Below, one piece after another: positions 5,417 through 39,784 of a DNA stretch of 64,000 bases. The notes below the pieces were generated by a model. That model was given only the letters and a program-made list of their open reading frames with translations, made no database searches and had not been told where the DNA came from. The stretch spans positions 101,765 to 165,764 of the forward strand of contig CAVPMI010000001.1 of the NCBI GenBank assembly GCA_963705975.1. Reading direction: 5' to 3'. Source of the DNA: an uncultured Pseudomonadota bacterium. Lineage in GTDB: Bacteria; Pseudomonadota; Gammaproteobacteria; Methylococcales; Methylomonadaceae. The translations under genes were made by a program, and so were the position numbers. Every line of letters begins with the position of its first letter. Position 1 is the first letter of the stretch.

Positions 5417-6018
5417 GGATAAATCTCCGTTATGGGTAAAATGGTTGTAGCAATTGAGCCACAATTGTGGCGCGTATGTAACTGGTATTTTATTATGGCT
5501 AGGAAATATGACAGAACTATTACATTCTTATGGCAAAAGGTAAAACTGTGGATTATTTAACATCTTTAAACTAAAAAGCCCATTTTAAGCTAAACATCAT
5601 GCGTTGGTTTAAAAAATGGTCAATATCCTGTAATATTATGGTGATATTAAAAATAGTGATTAAAAGTTAATGACTTAGGAACGTAGCGTTGGACAGTTTC
5701 TGTCTAACGACGTTATTTGTAATCATTGGCAACCTGCGCATCAAGTATTGTTGAATATGCCCAAAATGCAAATCGAAAGTTGCAATAGGCCGAAAATTGT
5801 TGGAATAAACCAACAGGCCTGGTTTATTTCAACCGGAATTTTGGTTTTTGCGAGGGTATTTTCTTAATCCGCAGCTGATTATTTATGCGGCATTTTCATC
5901 AAAAGCCGGAAACCCCATAAGAACTATTAGGTTTATTTATCAAGTATGCGTAATTGCAACTCAGGGTGGTTGTTGTTTGTGATTATGGTGCTAGTGGCTT
6001 AAGTAAGCTTATAGCGAA

Positions 6019-7335: not shown

Positions 7336-7509
7336 TTAAGCCTCAATTCGCGATGAAATTTACTAAAATCTATAGTTAAATTTCGGTGAATAGAATTTTC
7401 GTTTAGCGAAATATTTTATTATATTGAATAGAAATAACTGTATAAGTCAATAAGAGAAAATACTACAAGATGACTTGTCCTCATTTATTGGAAATCTCAG
7501 GAGAATCTC

Positions 7510-7815
7510 ATGAAAGTTAACATTAAAGCAATTTTTGTAACCTTAATTTTAATGACAGCTGGTATTTCTACATCTGTCTATGCTGAACCAAATTTGACAA
7601 TACAAGATGAAGCGGCGGCCAATCCTAATTTAACCAATGCTATCCATGCAATGGATGATGCTCTAAAATACTTAGAATCGACGCCGAATGAATTTGGTGG
7701 GAATAAAGCCAAAGCGATAGCAGACTTAAGATCGGCAATAGGCTCTACTAGAAAGGCACTAGATTACCATCTGCAAAAAGACGAAGATCACTACGATGGT
7801 TCAATGATGCAATAA
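7510..7815 (+). CDS. Small secreted hypothetical protein
   Basis: 101-aa ORF with GGAG upstream and signal peptide MKVNIKAIFVTLILMTAGISTSVYA. No family recognised. Confidence 0.5.
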   Translation: MKVNIKAIFVTLILMTAGISTSVYAEPNLTIQDEAAANPNLTNAIHAMDDALKYLESTPNEFGGNKAKAIADLRSAIGSTRKALDYHLQKDEDHYDGSMMQ

Positions 7816-7837
7816 TCGATGATTTGTTTGGGCAATG

Positions 7838-7953
7838 AGGTAAGTAAGCGTTCAGTACCTCTTTTTGAAAACGAGGGGTTAGGGTAGGTTTTTTAAATAA
7901 ATCCCTCTCGATCTCTCTTTTTCAAATGGGGAAGTGAACGCTTACTGAGGTAA
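7838..7953. repeat. ~115-bp imperfect palindromic (MITE/REP-like) element
   Basis: GTAAGCGTTCAGTACCTCTTTTTGAAAACGAGGGG on the left matches the reverse complement of CCCTCTCGATCTCTCTTTTTCAAATGGGGAAGTGAACGCTTAC on the right, with a few mismatches and indels. Confidence 0.4.
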
Positions 7954-8067
7954 TGCTATCTCTTTTGCTTGCGGGATTGCTAAAGATAACTACTGGTTTT
8001 TCCTTCAAGAGGACCCATTTGCCAGAGCATCAGCGAGTTTGCTTTTTATGAAGCATGGGCTCACCCG

Positions 8068-9613
8068 CTACTTCTGCAAATCAAATGAGTTTAACAATCT
8101 GGCAAAGACTGCGATTATCGTCGGTTCCGGCTGACGAAGGGACGGAAAAGATTGGTAACGCTCCCAACCTCCGCCCAACGACTTATAGAGTCCGATAAAC
8201 TGCTCGGCAGCGCTCTGTTGCGTCATTACATATTGCGCTTCCAAATCATATTCTTGTTTCTGTGCGTCGATGACATTGAGAGAGTCCGTCAAACCGCGAT
8301 TGAATCGCTGTGTTGCCAGCATGACTGCTCTCTGGCTTGCCTCCAGTGCGTTGCCCAATTTTGAAAGTCTGTCCTGTTGCGCTTTATAGGCGCCAAGGGA
8401 CGTATCGACCTCGCGCACTGCGTTGAGGACGGTTTTCTTGTATTGGACAAGCGATTTCCTTGGCGCGAAGGTCAGCCTTGTCGACTAGGGCATCAAGCGT
8501 TCCAAAATCCAGAATTGACCAGCTGACAGACGGGCCGAGCGACCAGATAAAGCTAGCGGGATGAGCTGAGCCAATGACTTGTCCGCCCTGCAGGCCTGCA
8601 CCGCCGATCAAGAATACATGCGGAAACAGATCGGCTTCGGCTATGCCGATTGCCGCCGTGGCTGCCGCCGCTTTACTTTCCGCTTCCTGAATATCAGGGC
8701 GACGGCGCAAGAGATCGAGCGGCAATCCGGTTTGAATATTATCCGGCAAGGATGGCAGCATACGGGGCTGGTTGAGTTCCTTGAGCATATCTTCGGGGAA
8801 TTTCCCCAAAAGTGTTGCAATGACATATTGCGCGGCGTGGATTTGGGCAACGAGCGGCGCTTTCTCGGCTTCAAACGAGGCAAGCTGCCGTTCCGCTAAG
8901 GTTACATCCAGCCCGTTGGTGATACCACGATTGTAGCGTTCCTGCGTCAGTTTGACGTAATCGTTGATATTATCAATGTTCTTTTGCAGGACTGCCACCC
9001 GCATTTGTCCGGCGCGCATATCGACATAGGCGCGGGCAACATTGGCAATCACCGAAATCAGCACAGTGTTACGGGCTGCGATAGTTGCTTGTGTATCATA
9101 CTCTGACGCTTCCAACTTGCGACGATATTTGCCGAACAGGTCCAGCTCATAAGCGGTATCAAAGCCCGCGATACTATTAATTTGGCTAAAGCCACTGCCG
9201 TTGTTTCCGGCCCGTAAGGGACCGGCGGCGCGGCCTTTGGTCATATCGCTGCCGTTTCCGGTAGCGGTGGCTGCACTCAGGTCGACGGCCGGCAAAGCGC
9301 CGCCGAGGACGACTTCTTCCTGCGTCCGCGCCTCCTGAACGCGGTCGAGTGCGATTTCAAGATCGGGGTTGTTGGCAATAGCCTGATCGATAAGCGCGTT
9401 AAGTTCAGGGTCTTTGAGCGATTTCCACCAGATCATCGCATCAATTAAGGGCTGATCAGGCTTTTGTGCATCCTTTTGTGACGCCGCAAAATTATCCGGC
9501 ACCGGCATATTAACAGGATGATAATCCGGCCCGATAGCGCAACCGGCAAGGCAGCAGCATGAAAGCGCCCCGGACAGGCTTATGAATTTGCTTTTACTTT
9601 TGGGCATGGGCAT
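8068..9613 (-). pseudogene. RND efflux outer-membrane factor lipoprotein (NodT family), interrupted by a frameshift near 8449
   Basis: ORF 8384..9640 carries a lipobox (LSCCCLAGC) and an OMF-like body, then ends in the out-of-frame tail ...ADLRAKEIACPIQENRPQRS.... Shifting frame at about 8449 gives ...EIA-(L)-VQYKKTVLNAVREVDTSLGAYK..., which continues into ORF 8068..8418. The likely start is ATG 9613, overlapping the adaptor gene stop. Confidence 0.8.
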
Positions 9614-10811
9614 TGCCGTCTTCCGAACCGTCTTGAACACTGACCGTGTCGCCTTGCGCGATCTGGTTGCCGATATTGAGCGCGACCTTTTCTCCTACAG
9701 CAACGCCTGACGCGATTTCGATGCTGTTGCCGTTGTCGCGGGCAATCGAGACATTTCTGTAATCTACCTTGCCGTTTTTGTCAATCACTGCAATTTGTGG
9801 CCCGTTGCTGCGGAAGACAAGGGCCGCAGCCGGCACTTGAAGTAGGCCGATATTGGGAATTTCGAAACTGGCATTGATATACATGCCGGACACAAGCGCA
9901 TGATCCGGATTGGAAATATCCACCTCCACGCGAAGGGTACGGGTCTGCTTATTGATTGCGCTGGCGGTGCGCGTCACCTTGCCGTCAAAGGTGCGACCAT
10001 GAACATTGCTAGCGGTTATATGCGCGACTAGGTCTGTGCTTATATCTTGGGCCGCGCTTTGCGGTACATCGACAAATACGCGCATCGGATCATCCTGCAC
10101 GATGCGATACAGCGGCGTCGTGTTCGCTGTACTGCCGGCGGTTACAAGATTACCGATATCGATATGCCGTTCGGTAATCGTGCCGTCATAGGGAGACGTA
10201 ACTTGCTTGAAAGCCGCGAAAGCCGTATAGCGGTCAACATTGGCCTTATCGAGGCCAACTTGCGCTATAGCGCGATCATAATCCGCCTTTGTGGACTCTC
10301 GTTCCTGTTGGGATACAACCCCTATAGGTGAATCTTTCCAGCGTTCATAGGTAGACTTGGTGAACTCAACCAGCGCTTGGGACGATTTGAGCTTGGCTTG
10401 TGCCGCGACAAGTTCCGCATCGAGTTCCGGTGTCTCCAGAGTCGCAAGAATCTGATCATTGGTAACGTGATCGCCGATATCCGCGTTCCATTTGCGGACA
10501 TAGCCATCCACGCGGGCATAGATGACGCTTTCATACCATGCGGCTGTCGCGCCCGGCAGCGTCAGCGAAACGGAAGCCGGAGCTTTTTGCACGGTAGCGA
10601 CTTCGACCAGAGCGGGGGTTGTTGCTGTTTCTTTGGTCAATTGAGCGACATCATTTTCATGACTTGAGCGGGCATGATGGACGAGAGCAAAGCCAACGCA
10701 GAGAATAATAGCAACCGAAAGAGCCGATGTTCCCAATTTGCGGCCGGTTGCGGCAAGAGGCTGTGCGGCTTTGGAATGCGTTTCCGATAGTGGGTTTTCA
10801 GACGGATGCAC
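9594..10811 (-). CDS. RND efflux periplasmic adaptor (membrane fusion protein)
   Basis: Lipoyl-like hairpin ARVDGYVRKWNADIGDHVTNDQILATLETPELD plus beta-barrel/MP domains. The preferred start is GTG 10811, preceded by AAGGAG at 8-nt spacing, which overlaps the pump stop codon by 14 nt. Confidence 0.85.
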   Translation of the reverse strand: MHPSENPLSETHSKAAQPLAATGRKLGTSALSVAIILCVGFALVHHARSSHENDVAQLTKETATTPALVEVATVQKAPASVSLTLPGATAAWYESVIYARVDGYVRKWNADIGDHVTNDQILATLETPELDAELVAAQAKLKSSQALVEFTKSTYERWKDSPIGVVSQQERESTKADYDRAIAQVGLDKANVDRYTAFAAFKQVTSPYDGTITERHIDIGNLVTAGSTANTTPLYRIVQDDPMRVFVDVPQSAAQDISTDLVAHITASNVHGRTFDGKVTRTASAINKQTRTLRVEVDISNPDHALVSGMYINASFEIPNIGLLQVPAAALVFRSNGPQIAVIDKNGKVDYRNVSIARDNGNSIEIASGVAVGEKVALNIGNQIAQGDTVSVQDGSEDGNAHAQK

Positions 10812-13800
10812 GATGGTCACTCCTTGTACTAGATACTGGCACACGGCGTAACAGCCGGTACATGGTTGGGACAAAAACCAGCGTGGCAAAAGTGGCGAAG
10901 AGCAAGCCGCCGATTACCGCGCGGGCCAGAGGCGCGTTCTGCTCGCCGCCTTCGCCAACGCCAAGAGCCATCGGGATCATGCCCAAAATCATCGCGCCAG
11001 CAGTCATCAAGACAGGTCGCAAACGGGTAAAGCCGGCGGCCAGGGCAGCAACAAACGGATCATCGCCTGCTTCCATGCGTTGATTGGCGAAAGTTACGAC
11101 AAGAATACTGTTAGCGGTGGTCAGGCCAATGCACATCAGCGTCCCCATCAGCGCCGGAACGCTCAGATGGGTCTGCGTCAGATAAAGCATCCACATGACG
11201 CCACCCAAGGCGAACGGCACCGCCATTAGAACGATCAGCGGGTCGATCCAGCTTTGGAAATTGATGACAAGGAACAGATAGACCAGCACCACAGCCAAGG
11301 CCATGCCGCCGAAAAGGCCGGAATAGCTTTCGCGCATGGTCGCGACCTGACCGCTTAAAGTGACAGTCATTGCGCTGGCGGCATCAGCTTTATTTTCAGC
11401 AATAACCTTATCGATATCCTTAGCTGCGGAATCAAGGTCGCGACCTTGGACATCGGCATGAACGTCAAACACCGGGCGGATGTTATATTGCGACATCACC
11501 ATCGGCACCGTGCGGCGGTCGAATTTTGCGACATTCATCAAAAGTTGGCTTTGTTGGCCGCTACCGGGGACCGCAACCGGCAGAGTTTCCAAATCTGCCA
11601 TTGTATTGATGCGGTAAGTTGGAACCTGAACGACTAGCGGATAGCTAACGCTGTTTTTAGGGTCGATCCAGAAATTCGGCATGGTTTGAGCGCTCGAATT
11701 TGTCGTGACCAGCACGTTGCTTGCAGTGTTTTGCTGATCGAGACCGAACTGAGTTGCCAGCGTCCGGTCAAGATCGACACCGAGCGCGGGAGCGTCCGGC
11801 ACCTGAAACACATGAGCGTCCACAATGCCAGGGACGGAGTGCAGGGCGTGGGCCAGTTTCGAGGCTAGTGCGTAAGTATCGCCGCTATGCGGCCCTGCAA
11901 CGCGGATATCGATTGGTGCGGGCTGGCCGAAATTCAAGACCTGATCGACAATATCGGCGGGCTGAAAGAAGAACTCTATACCGGCAAATCGCTTAGGCAG
12001 TTCGCTGCGCAGTTTGGCCGTAAGATCGGCGGTCGGTTGATGCTCTTTGGTAAGAGAAATAAGGATTTCGCCATCCATGGGACCGATGGTCGCGGAATCG
12101 CTGAGGGCGATGTTAATCCCACTGTAAGGCAGCCCGATATTATCAAGCATAGTGTCGATTTGCTGCGAACCCACAATCTGCCGGATCGCGGCTTCGATTT
12201 TGCCAAAATCTTTTTGCGTTTCCTCAAGGCGCGTTCCGGGCGCTGCGCGCACATGAAGGCGCATCTGTCCGGCATCGACTTGCGGGAAAAAATCCCGCCC
12301 CAATTGCGGAAACAGCAGTAGCGATACACTCATAAGTGCGACAAAGAACAATACCGTCAGCCTCGGTTCAGAGAGCGTCCAAAAAAGGCTATGACGATAG
12401 GTTTCGCGGAAGGACTCAAACCCATGCTCGAATTTCTCATGAATAAGGCTTAAAGGGTTGCGCTTACGCGGAGCGGGCGCAGAAGGGTGATCGGGCTTGT
12501 CGGGCGCCTCATTGATCGAACTCATCAGATATTTAAACAGAACCGGCACCAGCGTGAACGATAAGGCAAGGCTTGCGATCAGCGATATGCAAACCGACAG
12601 TGACAACGGTGAGAACAGGTATTTTGCCGTTCCTTGCAGCAGGAAAATCGGCACAAACACGATACAGATACAAAGCGTCGAGAGCATGGTTGGAACCCCA
12701 ACTTCGCCTGCGCCATTGATGATCGCCTTTTCAAGCGGTTCCTTGTCATGGAGATGACGTTCGATGTTCTCGATAACGACCGTGCCGTTATCAACCAAAA
12801 TGCCGACAGCAAGCGCAAAGCCTCCGAGCGTCATCGTGTTCAAGGTCTGGTTGCCGCAATACATAATAAGCACGGCGGTAATGATGGAAAGCGGGATGGA
12901 GGCCAGAATAATCAGGGTCAAACGCCAGTTGCCCAGGAACAGCAGGATCATGAGCGCGGTAAGGCCAGCCGCCATAGCGCCACCCATGACGACGCTATTG
13001 AGCGCAGCTTTCACAAAGAGAGATTGGTCAAAGAGGGCCTTGATTTGAACGCCGGAGGGCAGAATCTTTTTGATATTCGGCAATTCTTCGCGTACTCCGT
13101 CGATAACAGCCAAAGTTGAAACACCACCGGTTTTGCGGATGGTCATGAGTGCGCCGGGCGTTCCGTTCACGGAAACGGAATTGGTTTGCACCTGAAAACC
13201 ATCATGAACATGCGCCACATCGCGCATGAAGACCATTCTGCCATCGACATTTTTGATGGGGAAATCGTTGATAGCCTCGATCACATTGGGGCTGTTGTTC
13301 ATGCTCAGCGTGTAATCCTTGCTCCCCATTTTAACGTCGCCGGCAGGCAGGATGACGTTTTGATGCTGCAAGGAATGGCTGATATCGGATGGACTTAACC
13401 CTCGCGCTTGCAGGGCTTGCTGGTCAATATCGGCCATGATGACGCGTGGCTTTCCACCATATGGATAAGGCACTTCGGCGCCATGCACGACAGCCAGATT
13501 GGGACGGATGATGTTTTGGCCCAAGTCGTTTAGCTTCGTGTCGGGCAATGAATTGCTCGAAAGGCTCAACTGGATAATCGGGACGTCTGTTGCGCCGTAA
13601 CGAAGAACTAGTGGTGGCGTGATGCCGGGAGGCAAATATTTGAGGACGACGAGGGCGCTGCTGGCCAGCTGTGAGATAGCTCGGGTAACGTCCGCGCCTT
13701 CATGTAGATAGACTTTTTCGACGCCAACGCCGTTATAGCTTGTCGCCTCGATGCGGGAGATATCGTCCACCAGCGAAGCCATTTGGCGTTGGTGAATGGT

Positions 13801-28646: not shown

Positions 28647-29753
28647 GTGTTAATTTTTCGACATTTTCTTTTGTCCGGCGGCTTGTTTTTGATCGCCGCA
28701 AACTGCCCGGCGGCGGAAACCAAACTTTCCGTGCCTATGGATTACCGCTTGATTCGCAATGTGTTGATCCATCAATTGTATACCGGCGCCGGTGAAACGG
28801 CGCGGGTCTGGAAAGACGGTAAGGACTGTAGCTTTTTGGATCTATCCAATCCGCAAATTGGTGGTGAATCCGGCTTGGTTAAAATCGACAATAATATTCA
28901 CGCTCGAATTGGGATTAATTTGGGCGGTAAATGCATGCCGGCGCTTGAGTGGAGCGGTATGCTGGAAACTTTGCAGAAACCGACCTTGGACGCCACAGGC
29001 GATGTATTGAGCTTTCCGGTCAGCAGCGCTATGGCGACTGATGCCAACAGCCAACAATTGCATGTCAACCAGTTGCAGGATTTAATCAATAAAGTCGTAC
29101 AGCCAAAACTGGCGGAATTGAAAATTGATTTAAAACAGTCACGAAACGACATTATTAAAACCTTGCTGCCTTTTATCGATGCCGATGATACTGAAAAGTT
29201 GCAGGATACGGTGAACAGTCTACGTTTCAAGCAGGCGCAAGCTGATGAGAAAGGCTTACAGATTACCGTCGGCTTTACCGAACTTAAGCAGAAGAAGGCT
29301 GATATCAAGCCGGTTGCTGCATTCAATGCCGAAGAGTTGCAGCAATGGCAGGCGATTTGGAAAAATTGGCAGGCCAGTTTGGAAATTACGCTAAATAAGC
29401 CGCCGCTGGCTAAACAAGCGGAAAGCGATAAGGATACACTTCGTGAGGTGATGCAAGAGGCTGGTGCCGCATTTGAAAAAGGTTTAACCGAGCCGGACAC
29501 AGGTGACAATGATCCGGTACGGGGATTTTTTAATGATTCCTGGGATAAACTTGCGCCCTTGCTGCGCACAGCTTCCGAACAGATGCCCGGCGCGGAAGGC
29601 TTGCGCTATTTGACGCTAATAGCCGCTACAGATTTAATGTACGAAGTGGAGGCGATTTCCTCGCCGCTAGGGCTGGATATTTCTGCTAACGGCTTGCGCA
29701 AATTAGCGAGGTCCTATTTGGCGGAGCAGGCGGGGCGGAAGAAAGCACAGTAA
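28647..29753 (+). CDS. Hypothetical secreted protein
   Basis: 368-aa ORF with a GTG start preceded by AAGGAG, and a signal-like N-terminus (LLSGGLFLIAANCPAAE). No family recognised. Confidence 0.5.
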   Translation: MLIFRHFLLSGGLFLIAANCPAAETKLSVPMDYRLIRNVLIHQLYTGAGETARVWKDGKDCSFLDLSNPQIGGESGLVKIDNNIHARIGINLGGKCMPALEWSGMLETLQKPTLDATGDVLSFPVSSAMATDANSQQLHVNQLQDLINKVVQPKLAELKIDLKQSRNDIIKTLLPFIDADDTEKLQDTVNSLRFKQAQADEKGLQITVGFTELKQKKADIKPVAAFNAEELQQWQAIWKNWQASLEITLNKPPLAKQAESDKDTLREVMQEAGAAFEKGLTEPDTGDNDPVRGFFNDSWDKLAPLLRTASEQMPGAEGLRYLTLIAATDLMYEVEAISSPLGLDISANGLRKLARSYLAEQAGRKKAQ

Positions 29754-29791
29754 TGATTTAGAAGAGTATGGAGGGGACGTGCTTAAGGCAT

Positions 29792-29938
29792 TTAATACAG
29801 CTCTCCAACTAAATCCAGATAAGTCATATATAGCCGCATATCAAACTCCAGTTGGTGATAGTCCGGTTCCATATAGGCGCATAACTTATAAAATGCCTTG
29901 TTGTGGTCTTTTTCACGCAAATGCGCCAGTTCATGCAC
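29792..29938 (-). pseudogene. C-terminal fragment of a DUF45/YgjP-type zinc metallopeptidase gene (split by the insertion)
   Basis: Own minus-strand translation: VHELAHLREKDHNKAFYKLCAYMEPDYHQLEFDMRLYMTYLDLVGELY*. Its N-terminal partner is at 39123..39486. Confidence 0.75.
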
Positions 29939-30009
29939 AAAGATCACGCAAGGGTTTTCATAATATTAATTATTATAAATCAATAATTTAGATAATATTG
30001 ATTTTAAGG

Positions 30010-30116
30010 TTTACCCCATGTTTTACCCCAAAACTTACCCCAAACTTACCCCAAATTTACCCCAAATTTACCCCAAATTTACCCCGAAATTTACGGTTTA
30101 CGGGCGTAATTTACAC
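30010..30116 (+). repeat. Phased array of (T/C)TTACCCC repeats (7 copies, 11-12-bp period) plus 3 degenerate copies
   Basis: Copies start at 30010, 30022, 30034, 30045, 30056, 30067 and 30078. Degenerate copies follow: TTTACGG (30090), TTTACGGG (30097) and ATTTACAC (30109). The array lies between the left junction and the 3' end of the 348-aa recombinase gene. Confidence 0.8.
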
Positions 30117-31144
30117 TCATTATTTTCAAAACTCATATTGTTTTTTGTAACAAGCTTAACTTTTCTTGTGCCTCGGATGTCACCGACCTTTACAGATGAT
30201 TCTTTTTTTGAATTACCATAAAAAGTTTGTGATATATCGTTACAGTGACCGAGAACAATGCTAACTTGTTCGTCAGTCAATGTTGCTTTGATGTGTGATG
30301 CAAAAATATGTCTAAATGTGTAAGGCGATATGTAATTTTTAAGACGAGGAAAAACAGACTTTGAGTAATTTCTCATCTGTTCGCCAAAATTTTTAGCGCT
30401 ATCAATTTTTATTATCGATTCGCCATTATTGAGATGATTTAAAAGATAATGAAATTCAGGTGTATCACTTTTTACTGTAAAACTTCTAGTTTCTTGCCCA
30501 TATTTGCCTTTATGAGTTTTTTTAGAATTTACTATAAATCTTATACCACCATCGCAAACAGCACAAGAAACACCACCTTCAATTTCGGCGGGACGAGCAC
30601 CACATAAAGATAACAGGCATATAGGCAAAATATACTTACTATCCATTTTTTTAAGATAATCAAAATAATCCTTCTGAAATTCACGAGGAAGCTTAGAAAT
30701 CTGCAATTTCTTTGACCTTGATTTTTGTTTAGGTTTATTGGCTTGCTTCCATTCAGATTCATATTGTCCATTCTCAGATTTTTTTAAATGATTACCGGCA
30801 AAATCTGGCGGTATGCGTTGAATACATTCAACACAATATTGTAGCTTTTTAATAAGATTGATCTTTTTTTGATGTTCTTTTTCTTTATCGGCTTTTATTA
30901 ATAATTCCTTCGCTTTTGTTTCATAAATGTAACACCAAGCCGCTCTATACGCATAATACGTATTACGGCTTTTAGATAGCGTAAGAGGGTCAGTAGAGTG
31001 TTTAGCCATCCGACGTACGCATAATGCGTACTGTTTGATGGTAGGCTCTGATGGCTGTTTGCGTGGTGGTAATGCTCGAATGTAAGCACTTGCTTCATTC
31101 ATGACCATATACCATGATTGAATATCTTGATTATCCATAATCAA
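30098..31144 (-). CDS. Tyrosine recombinase-like protein (atypical box II)
   Basis: 348 aa. LSLCGARPAEI (catalytic Arg), ...SPYTFRHIFASH... (R-H present, but Tyr where the first His of HxxR is expected), VLGHCND and QTFYGN (candidate nucleophile Tyr). Confidence 0.7.
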   Translation of the reverse strand: MIMDNQDIQSWYMVMNEASAYIRALPPRKQPSEPTIKQYALCVRRMAKHSTDPLTLSKSRNTYYAYRAAWCYIYETKAKELLIKADKEKEHQKKINLIKKLQYCVECIQRIPPDFAGNHLKKSENGQYESEWKQANKPKQKSRSKKLQISKLPREFQKDYFDYLKKMDSKYILPICLLSLCGARPAEIEGGVSCAVCDGGIRFIVNSKKTHKGKYGQETRSFTVKSDTPEFHYLLNHLNNGESIIKIDSAKNFGEQMRNYSKSVFPRLKNYISPYTFRHIFASHIKATLTDEQVSIVLGHCNDISQTFYGNSKKESSVKVGDIRGTRKVKLVTKNNMSFENNECKLRP

Positions 31145-31227
31145 CCTACATTTAAAAGTTATATGTTTTTACTTCATTTTATTACGTAAAAAAGCGCGTG
31201 AACGCTATCGCTAACAGCCACGCACCT

Positions 31228-31253
31228 ATATTATTGCCATATGGCAATAATAT
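31228..31253. promoter_or_regulatory. Perfect 26-bp palindrome ATATTATTGCCATATGGCAATAATAT upstream of the 348-aa recombinase gene
   Basis: All 13 pairs around the centre at 31240/31241 were checked base by base. It lies between the end of a small ORF (31257) and the recombinase start (31144). Confidence 0.5.
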
Positions 31254-31256
31254 TAA

Positions 31257-31430
31257 CTAATACATTTGCTCTTCTTCCTTACGCTCCATATCTTGCTCAA
31301 GTGTCCACTGCAGATAAGCTTGTTCTCCAAGTTCATGAAGATAATTTATATCAGCAATCTCTTCACAGCGTGGGCAAAGAAAATCATACATTGTACTTTG
31401 AGAAGGGTGAACTATACGTATTGTGATCAT
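31257..31430 (-). CDS. Small hypothetical protein (57 aa, acidic C-terminus)
   Basis: Part of track ORF 31257..31502. The internal start MITIRIVHPS... has AAGGA upstream, and the protein contains CPRC. No family recognised and the coding status is uncertain. Confidence 0.3.
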   Translation of the reverse strand: MITIRIVHPSQSTMYDFLCPRCEEIADINYLHELGEQAYLQWTLEQDMERKEEEQMY

Positions 31431-32119
31431 AAATAATTCCTTAAAATAAATGGTTGTCATTAGGACTAACTTTAATAAATGTGTATGATAATAATATATC
31501 ATGCAAAAATTTAAGTGTTAATACTAGTTAAAACAACTTTATTATAAAAACAATAGGTTTTTTCAAAATATATATTTAAAAGTACGGACGTACGAAAACT
31601 ATTTGCATTCGTTTTGAAGGGGAATTTTAATAGCTAAAAATGGTATCGCGTATATAAAATAATTATAAGAAATGGTTATTTTCAGGTTCATCGTTGTGTT
31701 AGCATCAAAGGCTGGCAATGGTATAGGTGGTAAAAATGGTATAATGCATGCAAGGTATTGATAGTATTTGGTAATTTCATGGTGCACCATCCTTTTAGCA
31801 TCAAGAATTGGCAAATGCTACGTTTCCCTGGCATTGAAAGACCTACAATTAGCTAAATTTGACTTGAAATTACAGTATCTAGTTTTGGGATAATTATGTA
31901 CTATACAATTTTTTGCATTAACGTATTAGCGAGTAAGAGCATGGAAAATTTTATTCCCATCATTAGCAGTATGTTTGTTTGTGTCGTGAACCAGTTTAAT
32001 TCAAACTTCGTTAAAGTGCCTATCCTAGAACATATAAATATAATAACCAAAGCTAAATTAATTTGGCATTATATACAACCAATAATTATTAATAAATGCT
32101 AGTTTTCTAAGCGTAGGAG

Positions 32120-33559
32120 TTGATTTTGAAATTTATTCGGAAATTTTTTCGCAAAAACCAGGCTTTGCCCTTAGTTAACGTTACAAACTATTCAACAAGT
32201 GAACCTAAGCAAACAGTTGTAAATAACGAAAAGACCAAGGTGATTAAGCTCGCGGCTGAGCAGGGAGATGTAAATGCACAATTTTATCTTGGGTATATGT
32301 ATGACCATGGAAAAATAGTAGTTCAAGATTATAAAGAAGCATATAAATGGTACAAATTAGCCGCAGAACAGGGAAATATAAACGCACAATTGCAACTTGG
32401 CTTTAAGTATGACCAAGGAATAGGACTAATTCAAGATTATAAGGAAGCTTTTAGATGGTTCACATTAGCCGCAGAACAGGGAAAAAAGGATGCACAATTT
32501 GCAATTGGCTATATGTACGACAATGGGAATGGAGTAAGTCAAGATTATAATGAAGCTATTAAATGGTACAAATTAGCCGCAGAACAAGGTGATGTAATAG
32601 CACATTTTTCTCTTGGTTTTATGTATTATGAAGGAAATAAAGTAATTCAAGATTATAAGGAAGCATTTAAATGGTTTACATTAGCAGCAGAACAAGGAGA
32701 TGTAAAATCACAATTTAATCTTGGTCTTATGTATGATAAAGGACAAGGACTAATTCAAGATTATAAGGAAGCTTTTAAATGGTATAAATTAGCCGCAGAA
32801 CAAGGTGATTCCGATGCACAAAATAAACTTGGTGTTAGGTATGAGCAGGGGAAAGGTGTAATTCAAGATTATAAGGAAGCTTTTAAGTGGTACAAATTAG
32901 CCGCAGAACAGGGTGAAGCGCTTGCACAAGTTAATCTCGGTCTTATGTATGAAGAAGGACAAGGAGTAATTCAAGATTATAAGGAAGCTTCTAAGTGGTA
33001 CAAATTAGCCGCAGAACAAGGTGATGCAAAATCACAATCTAAGCTTGGCTATATGTATGACAAAGGATTAGGACTAATTCAAGATTGTAAAGAAGCTTAT
33101 AAATGGTACAAATTAGCCGCAGAACAAGGTGATGTAATAGCACAATATAATATTGGTGTTATATATAATATAGGACAAGGAGTAATTCAAGATTATAAGG
33201 AAGCTTTCAAGTGGTTTAAATTAGCCGCAGAACAAGGTGATGTAATAGCACAATATAGTCTTGGTAATATGTATGATCAAGGCAAAGGAGTAATTCAAGA
33301 TTATAAGGAAGCTTTCAAGTGGTTCAAACTAGCCGCAGAACAAGGTGATGCTGATGCACAAAATAAACTTGGTATTATGTGTAGTCTAGGGCAAGGTGTC
33401 GATCAGAATTATATTTTTGCACATAAGTGGTTTAATATTTCAGCCGTAAATGGGGATAAAAATGCAAGAAATAACAGAGATATTTTAGCAAGTAAAATGA
33501 CGTTAGATCAAATAGAAACAGCACAGAAATTAGCAAGAAAATGTATGGATAATTCATAA
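32120..33559 (+). CDS. Sel1-like repeat (SLR/TPR-like) protein, 11 consecutive 36-aa repeats plus C-terminal cap, no signal peptide
   Basis: The repeat unit KLAAEQGDxxAQxxLGxMYxxGxGVIQDYKEAFKWY occurs 11 times, followed by FNISAVNGDKNARNNRDILASKMTLDQIETAQKLARKC. AGGAG at 32115-32119 favours TTG 32126 as the true start. The N-terminus is basic and not hydrophobic. Confidence 0.85.
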   Translation: MILKFIRKFFRKNQALPLVNVTNYSTSEPKQTVVNNEKTKVIKLAAEQGDVNAQFYLGYMYDHGKIVVQDYKEAYKWYKLAAEQGNINAQLQLGFKYDQGIGLIQDYKEAFRWFTLAAEQGKKDAQFAIGYMYDNGNGVSQDYNEAIKWYKLAAEQGDVIAHFSLGFMYYEGNKVIQDYKEAFKWFTLAAEQGDVKSQFNLGLMYDKGQGLIQDYKEAFKWYKLAAEQGDSDAQNKLGVRYEQGKGVIQDYKEAFKWYKLAAEQGEALAQVNLGLMYEEGQGVIQDYKEASKWYKLAAEQGDAKSQSKLGYMYDKGLGLIQDCKEAYKWYKLAAEQGDVIAQYNIGVIYNIGQGVIQDYKEAFKWFKLAAEQGDVIAQYSLGNMYDQGKGVIQDYKEAFKWFKLAAEQGDADAQNKLGIMCSLGQGVDQNYIFAHKWFNISAVNGDKNARNNRDILASKMTLDQIETAQKLARKCMDNS

Positions 33560-33567
33560 TCAATAGT

Positions 33568-34377
33568 ATGTGTCCTAAAGAAATCAAAAAAGAGCCTGTT
33601 TGCATTAAAGAACTCGAAGTACCGGTTCTTGTTGCCCACTTTTCTGAATGGGTAACTAATTTATGCAAACGCTTTCAAACGACAGAGGACGACATGCAAT
33701 TGTTTATTGAGAAGCGTAATCGTATCATAAAATATTTGCAAGATGAATTAATACCACTATCTTACTTTTGTCAACATTACACTTTGCAACACCCTGGAAT
33801 GTACATTAGGTACTATCCAGGAAGCCAACAATCTTTTGATGCCAAGATACTTGATTCAAATAAGGAAGATTTTGAGAAACTTGAAGTGACACTAGCAGAT
33901 TTTGGCTACGAAGAGAGAATCAGAAACGAGTTGTTATTAAAGTTCGGCTGCGTACCGCTATACTCAACTTTTGATAATGAGATACTTGATATAGATGGTG
34001 AGGTAACAACAGATAATTTTAACCACAAGAGCAAGAGATATGAGTTGTTATCAAAGTTTGGCTGCGCCCCTGAATACATCGATGGAAAACCTCATCCTTG
34101 TAAAGCACCAGAACTGGAAGTGATCAATGCCAATATTATTGTTGATAAATGCATTGAAAAAGTTCGAGCCGCCGTTGAAAAAAAAATCAAAAAAAGCGAA
34201 TCCGGTAAATACAAAGATTGTAACCTAATTGTTGCATTTGATGACTTTTGCTTGTTATCGGAAGAACACTTTGCACAAACCCGCGCTGAATTTTTCCAGA
34301 TCAAGACTTGCTTTCCAGTTGTCTACTATGTCGGTCTCACAGGTAGGTTGTTTCTTAAGGTGTCAAGTCTTGGTTGA
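33568..34377 (+). CDS. Hypothetical 269-aa protein, apparently co-transcribed with the Sel1-repeat gene
   Basis: The ORF starts 8 nt after the Sel1 gene stop. It has an internal duplicated motif, ELLLKFGCVP (aa 121-130) and ELLSKFGCAP (aa 159-168). No family recognised. Confidence 0.5.
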   Translation: MCPKEIKKEPVCIKELEVPVLVAHFSEWVTNLCKRFQTTEDDMQLFIEKRNRIIKYLQDELIPLSYFCQHYTLQHPGMYIRYYPGSQQSFDAKILDSNKEDFEKLEVTLADFGYEERIRNELLLKFGCVPLYSTFDNEILDIDGEVTTDNFNHKSKRYELLSKFGCAPEYIDGKPHPCKAPELEVINANIIVDKCIEKVRAAVEKKIKKSESGKYKDCNLIVAFDDFCLLSEEHFAQTRAEFFQIKTCFPVVYYVGLTGRLFLKVSSLG

Positions 34378-34651
34378 GGCTGTATATTCTAGTCAGTAGC
34401 TACTGATAGTGCCTACGCAGAATTTCAATTACCTTCAAACGATGGGCAGAAAAGTAATTCAAAGGCTTTTAGATACGATACGAGATAAATATTGACCTAA
34501 TCTTTTCTACAATAGGATACTATCTAGCCATTATTAATCTGATTAATTGCAATATAAAAATCGGAATGTACTATTGATTTATTGCTTAATCAATACTCGA
34601 AGAAGAAAAGCAGGGATATTTATATGTAACTATAATAAATTATAATATAAA

Positions 34652-34882
34652 TTATTTTAGACGTAAGATGGTATCTTCTTCAATGTCATCATTAATTATA
34701 TTTTCCGTATACTTTTTATTCTTTTCATCTTTAAGGATTGAAATAAATAAAGTATCACCACCGGATGAACCTGATGAGCCGCAAGATCCTTCAGGTAATT
34801 TCTTAAGTAATGATGTGTTTAATACAAACATTTTAGTGTTTTCTGATAGGAACGGATTTCTATTTTCCATATATATTTCCAT
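34652..34882 (-). CDS. Hypothetical 76-aa ORF (low confidence)
   Basis: Track ORF in very AT-rich DNA downstream of the Rep gene, containing GSCGSSGSSGG. There is no other support. Confidence 0.2.
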   Translation of the reverse strand: MEIYMENRNPFLSENTKMFVLNTSLLKKLPEGSCGSSGSSGGDTLFISILKDEKNKKYTENIINDDIEEDTILRLK

Positions 34883-35117
34883 ATTTAAATTTGTAAACTT
34901 AAAAATTTGACATAGATTGGTCTTTAGGTTAATGCCAAGTTTTATTTTTTTAAGTAATTTAATGTATTAAGTAAAAATGATTATAATTAATTTATAAATA
35001 ACATAAGTGTTTATATATATTTATCCCCTAACAAAACTATAGCATACAAATAGAGTATCTCAATAGTAAAAAACTTATTTAATTAACATTTTAATAGTTG
35101 TATTGTATTTTTTATTC

Positions 35118-36929
35118 TTACAACAGTAAATTGTTATGAGTATTATATAAGGAATATAAAAACTTATATGTTTTATATATATCTCTATTATGTATTATTA
35201 TATGCTTATAATAATTTACAACCACAACCGCCTTTGTTTTTTTATTATCATCATCATTATTATTTTTATTTATATTATTTGCGCTCCGCGTACACTTATT
35301 GATAGTAATTCGAGAACAAACAGGCGTTGTCTCGTGCGCTGCGGCAGTGGCCGCCTCGCCCATTCCATCGCCTGTTTGCACGGCGTCCGCCGCATTAAAA
35401 CTAAATTCATCCAAACATTCGGAAAGAGTATTAAATGATTGACTAATAGAATTACCAGATATATATTTATTTATAACAAAAGACCACTCTTTTATACGTG
35501 TAATAGTAGTTAAGCCATTGATAATTACACCTTTTATTTTTTTCTTATCTTCTTTATAATTATTTACATAATCAAGCTTATGAAGCTTAACGTCATTAGA
35601 TAAAACCAAAGTCATAAATTTAGAGTAATCCTTAAAAAATGAACATACACGCAACTGCTCAAGAAGTGGATCTGATTGTTTATCATTACGCAAGCGTCCA
35701 ATCTCACGCCATAAACCAACAGCGCAACCGCCAAAAAATTGAAACTGACGAATAGCCCAATCTGAACTAAAACCACGAATACGCTCGCCTTGTTCGGCAT
35801 GACTAACTTCGCCGCGATTTGCGCCTGTATTTTTACCTATATACTTAGCAACGTAACCCGCCGCACCGGCCTTATTAGGATCAAGCTTAACTGATTTAAA
35901 ACGTGAGCCTGAATTTGGAATCTTACTATTGCCTTTACCGAAATATGTAAAACCTTCCGAAAGATGATTATGACCCTTAAGCGGAGCTGCGCCATTTTCG
36001 CAACCATCAACTTTTAAAGCTTGATATGACATACGTTCGTGAACTCTATCCGCATGCTGTGGCGCAAAAAATATTAAAATATGGCGATGTGTACAGCCAT
36101 CACGATGCGGCTCTGTAACCTGCAAGCCAATTATATTAATGCCATCGCGCGCGCAGGCAGAGCGAAAACGTGCCCAGACTTTTTGTAAGTGATTTTTACT
36201 ATCTAAAGGTTCAGCACCGCTATACTTTTTGTTTACAACACTACCTGGACAAGAATGAAAAGATGAAGGACAAGTTATAGTCCAAAAATAAGCCGCCATG
36301 CCGTTTTGCTTTGCATATTCTTGATAACCATGAATACGAAGCATTAACTCATTGTATCGATTTTGTGGATTTGCTTGAGACTTATCATATACACCAAGCA
36401 TACTTAATCTTTTACCCGTTGACTGATCAAAAATAAAAATCTTAGCCATCATTTCGCGTATTGAATTTTGCTTTTCGCGATATTCCTCTAAATTTTCATC
36501 AGTGATATAGCGATTTTTACCGGTGTCAGGATTTGCACCCAATAAGCCTTTACGCATTGCATACATATTTGCAGCACGCTTACGATAAGTCTTCACGCGT
36601 TTATTCCAAAACTTACGCATACTTACTTTTACTTTAAATGCATAAAAATGTTGATAAGTTGGACAACCGAACGTTGTAAACCTTAAAAACTTTCTGACAT
36701 TCAATATAAAATCAAATTCATCCGGGTAACACATTGTAAATAATTCGATTATCTGCAAATATTCATAATTATGAAGATAATTAATATCAAAAGTTAACAA
36801 TTTACCATCAATAAATGATTCAAAATAATCTAACACTTTTTCAGAAATTAACGATCTTTCGTTTTTGACGTTAGACATAAAATTACAAATCCATTTGTTT
36901 AATCTATTTATATTAGTATAATAGCACAT
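35118..36929 (-). CDS. HUH-superfamily rolling-circle replication initiator (phiX174 gpA / P2 gpA-like)
   Basis: 603-aa ORF with the three RCR motifs in canonical order. These are FWTITCP (aa 215-221), EPHRDGCTHRHILIFF (HUH; aa 273-288) and GYVAKYIGKN (two-Tyr Y-x-x-K-Y; Y359/Y363). The exact start is uncertain and the C-terminal ~60 aa are low-complexity. Confidence 0.75.
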   Translation of the reverse strand: MCYYTNINRLNKWICNFMSNVKNERSLISEKVLDYFESFIDGKLLTFDINYLHNYEYLQIIELFTMCYPDEFDFILNVRKFLRFTTFGCPTYQHFYAFKVKVSMRKFWNKRVKTYRKRAANMYAMRKGLLGANPDTGKNRYITDENLEEYREKQNSIREMMAKIFIFDQSTGKRLSMLGVYDKSQANPQNRYNELMLRIHGYQEYAKQNGMAAYFWTITCPSSFHSCPGSVVNKKYSGAEPLDSKNHLQKVWARFRSACARDGINIIGLQVTEPHRDGCTHRHILIFFAPQHADRVHERMSYQALKVDGCENGAAPLKGHNHLSEGFTYFGKGNSKIPNSGSRFKSVKLDPNKAGAAGYVAKYIGKNTGANRGEVSHAEQGERIRGFSSDWAIRQFQFFGGCAVGLWREIGRLRNDKQSDPLLEQLRVCSFFKDYSKFMTLVLSNDVKLHKLDYVNNYKEDKKKIKGVIINGLTTITRIKEWSFVINKYISGNSISQSFNTLSECLDEFSFNAADAVQTGDGMGEAATAAAHETTPVCSRITINKCTRSANNINKNNNDDDNKKTKAVVVVNYYKHIIIHNRDIYKTYKFLYSLYNTHNNLLL

Positions 36930-37304
36930 CTTTTTTAAATTAAAAATGATATATTATTAATATATTATAAGTAAATTATATATTATTATAATCATATTAT
37001 ACATGGTACTATTTACATTAAAACTAACGTATAACAACAGTTGTCGTTTGCTCGCGCGTGAGTCTTATACCGCCCTGCGCGCGGCCGGCGAAGGGTTGAA
37101 ATAATTTATAAAATTACTTATTAATTAGCGCATTGCACCGCAACGGCTAACGAATTAAGATCAAAAGCTATCAATAATGGAGTAAGCGCCTGGAATGCAT
37201 TCACGAAGAATGAAAGGCGTGAGTTGTTTTAAAGAAAGAACAAAAAAACTCGCGGGTAGTATGTGCTCGTTTTTTTTATAAATGGATTATATTTATTATT
37301 AAGA

Positions 37305-37528
37305 TTAGATTATCTATTGCATTATAATTAGATTATCTGCTAAAATGTAAATCAAAAAATAACTCTGGTGTGAATTTCAATCGTCTTTTTTATTTAATTA
37401 TTTGTTTCACGTGGAACAGTTATAATGTTAGATAACTATATAGGTATTATTTAGCTGATAACCATTTAATAATTATAATGCCATTATATACTTTATATTG
37501 TGATTATAATTATGAAATGATTATCTCG
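37305..37528. repeat. Scattered TTAGAT(T/A)A(T/C)CT-type repeats (iteron-like) in the Rep-int intergenic region
   Basis: TTAGATTATCT at 37305-37315 and 37328-37338 (23-bp spacing), TTAGATAACT at 37428-37437 and GATTATCT at 37519-37526. Confidence 0.35.
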
Positions 37529-37612
37529 ATTATAAAAGCAAAATAAGTATAAAGGTATTATATATAAATAAAAACAAACAAATAAACAAACTAACTAACA
37601 AATAAACAAAGT

Positions 37613-37698
37613 GGTGTAAATTAAAGGTGTAAATCGGTGATTCTTACACCTGTAAATCATGAGTGTAAATTACAGGTGTAAATCGGTGATTTTTACAC
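37613..37698. repeat. Nested direct/inverted repeat cluster built on TGTAAAT / TTACAC
   Basis: xxTGTAAAT occurs at 37613, 37626, 37649, 37662 and 37675. The 17-mer GGTGTAAATCGGTGATT occurs twice (37626-37642 and 37675-37691), each time followed by TTACAC. There is also a 9-bp perfect inverted repeat, CACCTGTAA (37647-37655) and TTACAGGTG (37670-37678). Confidence 0.7.
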
Positions 37699-39006
37699 TC
37701 AGATATGGCTGTAAGAAAAAGGGTATTTTATAAGCTCAATACCTTCTTTTTTTAACGCATAATCCGTACCACCAGAATAAAGACCGTAAGTGATAGTCTT
37801 CTTTTTATGACCGACAATATCAGCCACAGCGCCTTCGGGAAATTTATGATTTTCTAACTGCGTAACAAAAGTTTTACGGATCGAATGAAATACTTGTAAA
37901 TCTGAAAAATCAAAAGAGGCTTTCAAGCGACAAAATCTATTTTTAATACTATGCGAACGCTCACCATAAGAATTTGGCTTTTGATCTGTTAAGAGATAAC
38001 CATCTTTTGTATTGGCAATTAATCGCTTAACAACTGGCATAATTTTTGAATGAATAGGAAAATTACGAATACCTGCGCGAGTTTTACTATCACAAATATT
38101 TATTGTAAATTCATTCAATTCATAATCAAAAATTACATCCTCAACTTTTATATTACAAATTTCCTCTATTCTTGCGCCTGAATATGCGGCTAAAAGTATT
38201 AAATCAAGTAAATCATAATCTATACCATAATTGCGGCGGTCTCTTTGCCAGCATCTTTCGTACATGTTTACAATATCGATAGGCTTAAAAGGTATCCAAC
38301 TTTCAGCCGATTCCTTTTCTTGAGTGATTTTAGACTTAGAACCCAAAACACCTAAAAAATGTATAGTTAAATCAAGTTTTGAATTATCACGAACATATTC
38401 AATAAATGCATAACAATTTGTTTTTATACGTGATATGGTCGAAAAACTTCTTTCTTCCTCTAGAGACTTAAACCATGTGCGAAGCGCATAATGTTCAATA
38501 TTATTAAGGATTGGAAAATAATCGATAAAAAGCCTAACATCTTTTGATTTACGCTCATTGGTTTTTATTGAATGTTTTAAACCTGCTTGCCAAGAAAAAT
38601 AGTAAGTATCAGAAATTAATGCTTCACCATCAATGACTTTTTGCATAACACCCAAACCCTCTTCACCATATTTTTTATAAATACGTGACTGAGTAGCTTC
38701 AAATTGTATTTGCCGGTCTGGATTCAGTTCCATGCCTATATCAGCATATTCATTAATAGTTTTTATTTGATCCCAAAACGGCTTCCAAAACACCCCCTCG
38801 CAAATTAATTCTGAACCTTGCCCCCTCGCGTTAGCAATTTGAGATTTCCACAGCATGACGTATGGCGCAGATTTAAGCTCTGCCTTTTTTTCATTCGATT
38901 CTTTAAGTGAGACTTTAAACTTAGATTTTCCGAGAATTTTACGCACATCCTTCGGAATTATAAGCAAAGCATAATATGTATTACCGCGCTTTTCTAAATA
39001 TGACAT
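37699..39006 (-). CDS. Phage-type tyrosine integrase
   Basis: 435 aa. N-terminus RGNTYYALLIIPKDVRKILG (typical integrase arm-type domain), then AYSGARIEEI, FHSIRKTFVT (HxxR), IVGHKK and TYGLYSG. Confidence 0.9.
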   Translation of the reverse strand: MSYLEKRGNTYYALLIIPKDVRKILGKSKFKVSLKESNEKKAELKSAPYVMLWKSQIANARGQGSELICEGVFWKPFWDQIKTINEYADIGMELNPDRQIQFEATQSRIYKKYGEEGLGVMQKVIDGEALISDTYYFSWQAGLKHSIKTNERKSKDVRLFIDYFPILNNIEHYALRTWFKSLEEERSFSTISRIKTNCYAFIEYVRDNSKLDLTIHFLGVLGSKSKITQEKESAESWIPFKPIDIVNMYERCWQRDRRNYGIDYDLLDLILLAAYSGARIEEICNIKVEDVIFDYELNEFTINICDSKTRAGIRNFPIHSKIMPVVKRLIANTKDGYLLTDQKPNSYGERSHSIKNRFCRLKASFDFSDLQVFHSIRKTFVTQLENHKFPEGAVADIVGHKKKTITYGLYSGGTDYALKKEGIELIKYPFSYSHI

Positions 39007-39026
39007 TTGGTTACCTGAGCAATTAA

Positions 39027-39058
39027 TTTACCCCGGCATTTTACCCCAGTTTTACCCC
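39027..39058 (+). repeat. Three TTTACCCC repeats (same orientation as the left-end array)
   Basis: Copies at 39027-39034, 39040-47 and 39051-58, between the integrase start codon and the right junction. Confidence 0.75.
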
Positions 39059-39122
39059 AGCAACCAGCCGACAAAGCTTACAGGCCAAGGCCCGCAAGGG
39101 TTTCAGGTCAGCTGTGATCATC

Positions 39123-39486
39123 CATGCACTGTTATCATGCGCAAAAATTCCAGCGGCGCTTGTTTGAACACAGAGCCGATCCTAATTTCATGTTTGGCTT
39201 TCAAATTACTGCCTTGCACTCTGGAAACAAAGGAATGCAAACCTAAGGCTTGGTGGAGCACATCCAGTTTATCGTCATAAATGATTTTGCTCAGCGGGCA
39301 GGATTGCCGTAGATATTGGTTCTTGATTTCCATCACATAGCTGTACAGGGTTTTGTCGGTGCAAATACTGTGTGGATTCGGATATTTTTTCAGCAGCACA
39401 GCAGCCAGTTTTTGACTGTCTAGTAGTTTGAGCACCTGATCTGTGACGGTGGGCGCATAGCCGGCCAAATATTTTAAAGAGCGCAT
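39123..39486 (-). pseudogene. N-terminal fragment of the DUF45/YgjP-type metallopeptidase gene
   Basis: MRSLKYLAGYAPTVTDQVL...IGSVFKQAPLEFLRMITVH, then element-derived G-stop. The start, 39486, lies 11 nt downstream of the upstream gene stop. It joins in frame to 29792..29938. Confidence 0.75.
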
Positions 39487-39496
39487 AGTAAAAGCT

Positions 39497-39784
39497 TTAA
39501 TTCCACGGCGGTAAATCATTGTCATAGGCGACAAAATCTTTAACGCTTGGCCGGGTGATGGTATCGGCTGCCGGTTTGCCGGCTTTGGTTTGGTCTTTTG
39601 CTGATGCGGGTTTTGCAGGTGAATCCCTGGTAGCTGATTCCTCCGCCCAATTTGCAAATAACGCGATGTCAACAGTACCCGGCGCATACCATTTTTTAAC
39701 GGAGGCATCCCATCTTGCGCCTAAGGCTTTTGCTGCGTCCTTTTCGGCATACGGAACATTGAGGTAGGTTTTTGTGCTTGTCAT
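39497..39784 (-). CDS. DUF5710-like small protein
   Basis: 95 aa. YLNVPYAEKDAAKALGARWDASVKKWYAP matches my recollection of the DUF5710 motif seen at the N-terminus of TraC-type primases. Confidence 0.65.
   Translation of the reverse strand: MTSTKTYLNVPYAEKDAAKALGARWDASVKKWYAPGTVDIALFANWAEESATRDSPAKPASAKDQTKAGKPAADTITRPSVKDFVAYDNDLPPWN

Follow-up and report, generated by a model that had tools for sequence, protein, structure and literature searches.

The cluster of short repeats described here sits in a 9.2-kb island of low GC content (0.33, versus about 0.47), located within a window of 64,000 nucleotides, which is the whole stretch of DNA that was analysed. The island is bounded by a 7-bp repeat, CATGCAC, at positions 29933–39 and 39124–30, and splits a gene for a HELAHL (YgjP-like) protein. 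Three of its genes are encoded on the minus strand: ORF348 (30098–31144), a P2-type Rep (35118–36929; PF05840, 2.5e-52; phrog_91, 8e-98), and the element's own integrase (37699–39006), which combines a DUF6538 N-terminal domain with a Phage_integrase domain. The plus strand carries the genes for a Sel1 protein and for a 269-aa orphan. The element holds no virion or transfer genes and no TrfA. Its only other copies, found in two assemblies (L002 and L003), are identical and collinear with the window. There is no close relative of the element as a whole, and its closest relatives reach at most 41% identity in the integrase and at most 35% in the Rep.

The cluster occupies positions 37613–37698 and directly adjoins the stop codon of the integrase gene (37699–37701). 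It is built from a 49-bp unit that is present in tandem in about 1.75 copies. Read on the minus strand, these are arranged as a partial unit (box c'' and the link), a full unit named U1, and a second partial unit (boxes b and a). The minus-strand sequence of U1 (37636–37684) is composed of GATTTACACCT (box 1), GTA, ATTTACAC (box 2), TCATGATTTAC (spacer), AGGTGTAAG (inverted box), and AATCACC (link). The first putative arm box of this unit, b', lies at 37674–37683 (AGGTGTAAAT on the plus strand, ATTTACACCT on the minus strand), and the second, a', at 37663–37670 (GTGTAAAT on the plus strand, ATTTACAC on the minus strand). The spacer (37652–37662) separates them from box c, an opposite-sense box at 37644–37651 with the minus-strand sequence AGGTGTAA, whose GGTGTAA column is invariant in the multiple alignment with the related modules described below. 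In the downstream partial unit, box b (37625–37634, plus strand AGGTGTAAAT) is a copy of b', and box a (37613–37621, plus strand GGTGTAAAT) is a copy of a'. At the other end, box c'' (37693–37698, minus strand GTGTAA) is a copy of c and is the part that touches the integrase stop codon. The link is present twice, at 37635–37642 and 37684–37691, reading CGGTGATT on the plus strand and AATCACCG(ATT) on the minus strand. Three of the boxes match AGGTGTAA(A/G) exactly, and the remaining ones differ from it by one base.

Every coordinate given in the earlier note was confirmed. This includes the xxTGTAAAT copies at 37613, 37626, 37649, 37662, and 37675 (successive distances 13, 23, 13, and 13), the 17-mer GGTGTAAATCGGTGATT at 37626 and 37675 (49 bp apart), and the 9-bp perfect palindrome between the two 17-mers, with its arms CACCTGTAA (37647–55) and TTACAGGTG (37670–78). 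The minus-strand unit is also, as had been noticed, one base different from the TTTACCCC boxes at the ends of the element and inverted relative to them. Three details need to be amended. The copy at 37649 (37649–57) is found where it was placed, but it is not a separate box, as the homologous modules have their spacer at this position. Likewise, both 17-mers had been proposed to fold as GGTGTAA hairpins, but the stem of the second is just 6 bp long (GTGTAA/TTACAC).

Finally, the cluster as a whole is a 49-bp tandem duplication, with 36 bp at 94% identity. Its repeats are genuine and well beyond what chance would produce. The word GTGTAAAT has 8 copies in the window, where 2.46±1.49 would be expected, and four of the copies are within 70 bp. 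Folded as single-stranded DNA, both strands do better than shuffles to the same degree (z-scores of -4.25 and -4.31). The 13-bp-spaced pair has no second occurrence in the 5-Mb genome at up to one mismatch, and no similar arrays were found in viral contigs. A search for known RNA families returned none in 29500–39500 at E values up to 1, and matches in a promoter scan were no commoner than in shuffles. Among the element's ORFs of 35–81 aa, considered as sources of a small DNA-binding protein that could read the boxes, none has a Pfam or PHROG match.

The element's own integrase has arm sites of a different kind, which form TTTACCCC arrays in the same orientation at both ends of the element. 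The left-arm array spans 30010–30085 on the plus strand, while the right arm holds three copies at 39027–39058 on the same strand, 20–50 bp upstream of the integrase ATG. Relatives of this DUF6538 integrase were collected from 80 metagenome loci. They carry two or three direct repeats with the consensus ACATGTGGTAAAA, spaced almost always by exactly 13 bp, which lie 40–70 bp upstream of the ATG and adjoin the 3' end of a tRNA. When the window, with its roughly 128,000 positions, is scored with an arm-repeat matrix built from 29 relatives only, the element's TTTACCCC copies take ranks 1, 7, 8, 19, 28, 32, and 35, with ranks 1, 7, 8, 19, and 32 falling in the left-arm array. These ranks confirm the TTTACCCC copies as arm-type sites. 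No literature on DUF6538 was found.

The closest counterparts of the cluster belong to another family, a SAM_5-type tyrosine integrase family that targets the 3' end of mnmE; of the 301 genomes of the order, 21 have a member. The module that accompanies these integrases, and that all members share, was defined from L173, contig C17 of the window's own genome (G000), G207, G212, and G222, and further loci of the family are L240, L241, and L198–L213. It contains a conserved promoter-like pair, TTTACT-17-TATATT, overlapping two or three same-sense boxes of the form TTTAC[A/C]CCT spaced by 10–11 bp. These are followed by a spacer of about 20 bp, two boxes AGG[T/G]GTAAA, and the ATG of the integrase. 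The native position of the module is between the att core, formed by the 3' end of mnmE, and the start of the SAM_5 integrase gene. The boxes appear again about 50 bp from the distal core in four complete elements (L173, 14.6 kb; C17, 8.5 kb; G207, 18.4 kb; G212, 11.5 kb), and since they are repeated at both ends near the att cores, they are arm-type sites. To our knowledge, there is no published description of an mnmE-targeting SAM_5 integrase family or of its arm-site module, and the family is widespread in methanotrophs and apparently undescribed.

Two members of this family are of particular relevance for the cluster. L173 encodes a 380-aa SAM_5-type integrase, unrelated to the DUF6538 integrase, whose ATG is abutted by four AGGTGTA boxes (two per sense), and two further boxes are found at its far end, adjoining the repeated att core at the mnmE 3' end. 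The other member resides in the same genome as the window. Contig C17 (L218) carries an intact island of about 8.5 kb at the 3' end of mnmE (4030–12650), with HTH_17, Toprim, PLD, and GNAT genes and an intact 378-aa SAM_5 integrase (11346–12482, minus strand; 73% identity) composed of the SAM_5 and the catalytic domain. Its proximal arm module lies at 12484–12545, its distal arm at 4082–4101, and the att core repeat near 4030. The boxes of C17, TTTACACCT and AGGTGTAAA, are identical to the 9-mers of the cluster. This sharing of a box type may be a coincidence, as GGTG is the commonest type in the family.

The full unit of the cluster is homologous to the SAM_5 module. Alignments of U1 with the modules of L173, G207, G212, C17, and G222 score 34–44, compared with a mean of 13–14±2.6 and a maximum of 23–26 among 300 shuffles. 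These alignments take in the spacer, the U1 spacer being homologous to that of the family (for example ACAGATTTAA in G207). The succession of box, box, spacer, and inverted box aligns well with the family, at z-scores of about 8–11, but the cluster lacks the second inverted box as well as the ATG. When the pattern TTACAC-N4-8-TTACAC-N12-30-GTGTAA was searched in the 301 genomes (about 1.2 Gb), 21 matches were obtained at 11 sites in 10 genomes, against a single match for the reversed-pattern control. The sites correspond to the SAM_5 modules at mnmE (G000:C17, G207, G136, G188, G212, and G222), the cluster itself, and four isolated matches. Apart from the cluster, the pattern is thus nearly confined to such integrases, and the cluster is the single misplaced module of this sample.

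The cluster and the module have in common the box sequence TTTAC[A/C]CCT / AGG[T/G]GTAAA (TTTACACCT / AGGTGTAA), the order of the boxes up to the first inverted one, and a related spacer. They differ, however, in several respects. The same-sense boxes are 13 bp apart in the cluster and 10–11 bp apart in L173, C17, G207, G212, and G222, so that the sequence of the boxes points to the SAM_5 integrase family whereas their spacing points to the DUF6538 family. The second opposite-sense box is missing, and in place of TTTACT-17-TATATT the cluster reads TGTAAT / TTTAAT, with poor -35 hexamers. In addition, the unit is tandemly duplicated in the cluster and lies behind an unrelated integrase gene, after its stop codon. 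A comparison with the whole window that allowed up to 3 mismatches found nothing similar to the mnmE-type core, and tblastn revealed no remnant of a SAM_5 integrase gene in the element. The link may be a remnant of the 5' end of such a lost gene. As a weak hint, AATCACCGATT resembles codons 2–5 of the L173 integrase (AAGATCACGATT), a look-alike of 11 nt seen in this one relative only, and the two link copies are the only occurrences of ATCAC.?GATT in the window.

The backbone of the element provides a second line of evidence. ORF348, a divergent protein of a small family without a Pfam match, has weak similarity to tyrosine recombinases (phrog_216, E 0.004; Tn1549 Int 6emy, E 0.013). One homolog carries PF00589. 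Homologs with 48–54% identity are encoded on the TrfA-type integrative elements L171, L173, and L174. L171 combines its homolog with a DUF6538 integrase, a tRNA site, and two 13-bp-spaced boxes per end, whereas L173 carries a SAM_5-type integrase at mnmE. Since ORF348 homologs occur with either integrase family, integration modules are swapped on a common backbone. The gene order agrees with this. In L173, the module, int, a replication gene, and the ORF348 homolog follow each other on one strand, which is the strand that the module faces, and in the present element the minus strand presents the cluster, a non-coding leader, rep, and ORF348 in a matching order. This match, together with the evidence from L171, shows that integrases, targets, and initiators are all exchanged on the backbone. 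ORF348 was also considered as the protein that reads the boxes, which is unsupported, as no boxes of this type accompany the homologs in L171 and L174.

Based on this, the cluster is probably the leftover of a former integration module that stayed behind after a module swap and later underwent the 49-bp duplication. The ancestral backbone would have carried a SAM_5-type integrase, with its arm module between the mnmE core and the int ATG. This integrase would then have been exchanged for the DUF6538 integrase, which has TTTACCCC arms of its own and integrates at another target, and the P2-type Rep would have taken the place of TrfA. The old arm module would have been left out of place, and the duplication would have given rise to the present 1.75 copies. 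Two proposals of the earlier note find a partial place in this explanation. It had suggested a third set of recombinase sites, and the cluster does have integrase boxes of the arm type, although of the SAM_5 mnmE type and not of the type of the element's own DUF6538 integrase. It had also suggested the scar of a junction between tandemly integrated elements. A remnant of another integration module fits the observations, but a tandem junction does not, because neither a CATGCAC- nor an mnmE-type core lies beside the cluster and its orientation is unlike that of a tandem attP junction. The degenerate CATGCAC-type core that had been expected in that case was searched for at the cluster, and none was found nearby.

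Judging from their sequence, the boxes should be bound by the arm-binding domain of an integrase. They are as well kept as those of working modules, which speaks for either a recent origin or continued binding, and near-perfect boxes of this kind would still be bindable by such a domain. The most obvious candidate would be the SAM_5 integrase of C17, because its boxes are identical 9-mers, while the element's own integrase would be another possible binder, given the 13-bp spacing. Occupancy of the boxes, together with the hairpins, could make the cluster a terminator of int transcription or a roadblock before the rep leader is reached. Given the fold of the int transcript and the setting of similar T-rich tracts on related plasmids, both described below, such a role ahead of a promoter for this leader is plausible. 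A dedicated regulatory role of the cluster is likewise possible. The more specific idea that this satellite-like element has retained the cluster as a sensor directly upstream of its rep leader, through which the integrase of the C17 island would switch the replication of the element or the read-through from int, is very unlikely.

Two simpler explanations involve the integrase gene that the cluster adjoins. The cluster could be a third arm-type set for the element's own DUF6538 integrase, which would allow this protein, bound both at the cluster and at the arms upstream of its gene, to form a loop, autoregulate int, or control the rep leader. Its boxes are one base off the own TGGGGTAAAT arm boxes, with the GTAAAT core common to both, and all but one of the four intervals measure exactly 13 bp, the nearly invariant spacing in the relatives of this integrase. 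Moreover, GGTG and GGGG boxes are mixed in a single arm of SAM_5-family elements, so that variation at this position is tolerated there. Against this, the best cluster box ranks only 110 (5.8 bits) with the DUF6538 family matrix ACATGtGGTaAAa, well behind the ranks of 1–35 in the terminal arrays, and the cluster boxes break the best-conserved positions of that matrix, T4 and G7. The location differs as well, since the cluster follows the int stop codon at a distance of 1.4 kb from the core, whereas the arm sites of the family are found 40–70 bp upstream of the int ATG or at the far end near the core. Among the 72 DUF6538 loci with a readable flank (69 of them with at least 100 bp), none has a comparable array after the int stop, although a few repeat one 7-mer three times there, and the complete relative L171 has just two boxes per end and no internal set. 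Finally, the two integrase families align in the catalytic domain only; a shared N-terminal arm-binding domain was considered, but none was seen by profile comparison. A third arm set is thus an unlikely explanation. Much the same can be said of the cluster being simply the intrinsic terminator of int, with repeats that are incidental. It begins at the int stop codon, the int transcript would fold there with -24.1 kcal/mol (sub-hairpins of -12.5 and -8.2), and behind the fold come UUUAAUUU and a U-rich tract of some length. On related plasmids, a classical terminator precedes the same T-rich tract, which puts the cluster in the position of a terminator. The stems are nevertheless AT-rich with loops of 9–14 nt, a consensus scan makes no call at the cluster, the RNA z-score is just -2.3, and the box-by-box homology to the arm modules of another integrase family is left unexplained. 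Termination as the whole function is accordingly unlikely, but as a secondary role it is compatible with a module relic.

A further proposal was that the cluster serves the HUH Rep, as a nick site, a set of binding iterons, or a single-strand (lagging-strand) origin. This view can draw on its location at the head of a 770-bp non-coding stretch upstream of rep, on the three alternative hairpins that it can form, and on the iterons that TrfA relatives carry in the equivalent gap (L173 2298–2381), although these are unrelated in sequence to the cluster boxes. In phage P2, however, the nick is annotated in gene A at position 29892 of AF063097 (GCGCCTCG^GAGTCCTGTCAATAACTG). Among the relatives of the element's Rep, collected from 79 genome loci that are mostly P2-like prophages and of which none has the DUF6538 integrase type, the origin core CCTTGGAGTTCTGTCAATAACTGTACG is found at the same gene position in about 75. 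Conservation at the third codon positions reaches 0.8–1.0 in this core against 0.3–0.6 in its flanks, and therefore the constraint is on the DNA itself.

The element follows the same pattern. Its Rep belongs to the same family as that of P2 (phrog_91), and the only P2-type core match in the window, TCAATAAGTGTACG at 35289–35302 on the minus strand, lies inside rep at the same relative position and is preceded by a GC-rich inverted repeat (35317–35378). In comparison with P2, the element keeps the distal half of the core, whereas the nick-proximal half has diverged and is set apart by a 9-nt insert. The cluster has neither the core CCTYGGAGTYCTGTCAATAACTGTACG nor the GC-rich inverted repeat of a P2-type origin, and shares nothing with the P2 core. 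The earlier note had foreseen that the Rep site might be found in its own gene, as is the case for this match, and its proposal of a nick or hairpin origin at the cluster can be abandoned. Two small elements encoding an integrase and a GPA-type Rep (L084 and L087) lack a comparable array. For a single-strand origin, a strand-specific signal is missing, as both strands fold equally well. A role of the cluster in Rep-dependent replication is therefore extremely unlikely, and its removal as a candidate Rep origin is of direct consequence for annotation. An iteron origin of the TrfA type was rejected as well, since the element has no TrfA and the boxes are 8–10 bp long in mixed orientation, unlike direct iterons of 17–22 bp. 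Repeats of other kinds are found in L087 (9789–9865 and 11435–11506), where about five CGTTAACG palindromes lie between an HTH_17 gene and rep, and where rep itself has GC-rich structured repeats at the position that corresponds to the P2 origin.

Among known systems, heterobivalent integrases have arm-type sites such as P1, P2, and P'1-3 of lambda, and such sites are also known from P2/186. The cluster resembles them in its short direct and inverted boxes, of the kind read by an N-terminal arm-binding domain. The difference is that the predicted sites of the cluster are detached from a core, so that no normal intasome would form on them. Another parallel is offered by the satellite P4, whose P_LL promoter contains boxes for the Cox protein of phage P2, that is, sites for a protein of the helper located in another element. 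Here too, an element without virion or transfer genes has putative boxes for the recombination protein of another resident upstream of its replication region. The P4 sites are nonetheless of the excisionase type and their activation has been demonstrated, while those of the cluster are of the integrase arm type and cross-talk is a conjecture. As for the native SAM_5 module, a similar case is IntS of KplE1, where attL overlaps the int promoter and the integrase represses its own gene (PMC2951348). The boxes of the module similarly overlap a promoter-like pair just before int.

The cluster offers a concrete sequence-level trace of the exchange of integration modules in small integrative elements. 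The ORF348 family travels with two unrelated integrases and two initiators (TrfA and the P2-type Rep), and its backbones are found at two kinds of target site, a tRNA or YgjP-like gene on the one hand and mnmE on the other. In addition, an arm-site module with an embedded promoter has been defined for an apparently undescribed integrase family of methanotrophs. If it is true that a co-resident integrase occupies the boxes of the cluster, this would represent a simple route for cross-talk between islands.

The region that follows the cluster has features of its own. The T-rich tract at 37556–37612 reads TTTGTTTATTTGTTAGTTAG... on the minus strand, followed by TATAAT, and may be a promoter module directed towards the rep leader. 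Look-alikes of this tract and its TTTGTT/TTAGTT words, with 85–94% identity, are present on plasmid contigs of related methanotrophs, and each of them has a GC-rich terminator on one side and, on the other, the TATAAT of a kfrA-like gene. The tract thus looks like a portable promoter-upstream module. Within the rep leader region, positions 37252–37278 form a terminator-like hairpin on the plus strand, followed by T8, which could be the end of a small RNA that is transcribed from the plus strand and is antisense to the leader.

At the other side of the element, an inverted look-alike of 37649–37671 is found on the plus strand at 30106–30128, on the inner border of the left att arm, with 21 of 23 bases matching. 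The score of this pair is 36, compared with 19.1±2.8 and a maximum of 29 in shuffles. The sequence falls in the last 8 codons of ORF348 and encodes its native C-terminus. In the circular form of the element, the resulting 23-bp inverted repeat (30106–30128/37649–37671) separates a 1.6-kb arc with int and att from a 7.5-kb backbone arc, and a flip between its two arms is conceivable.
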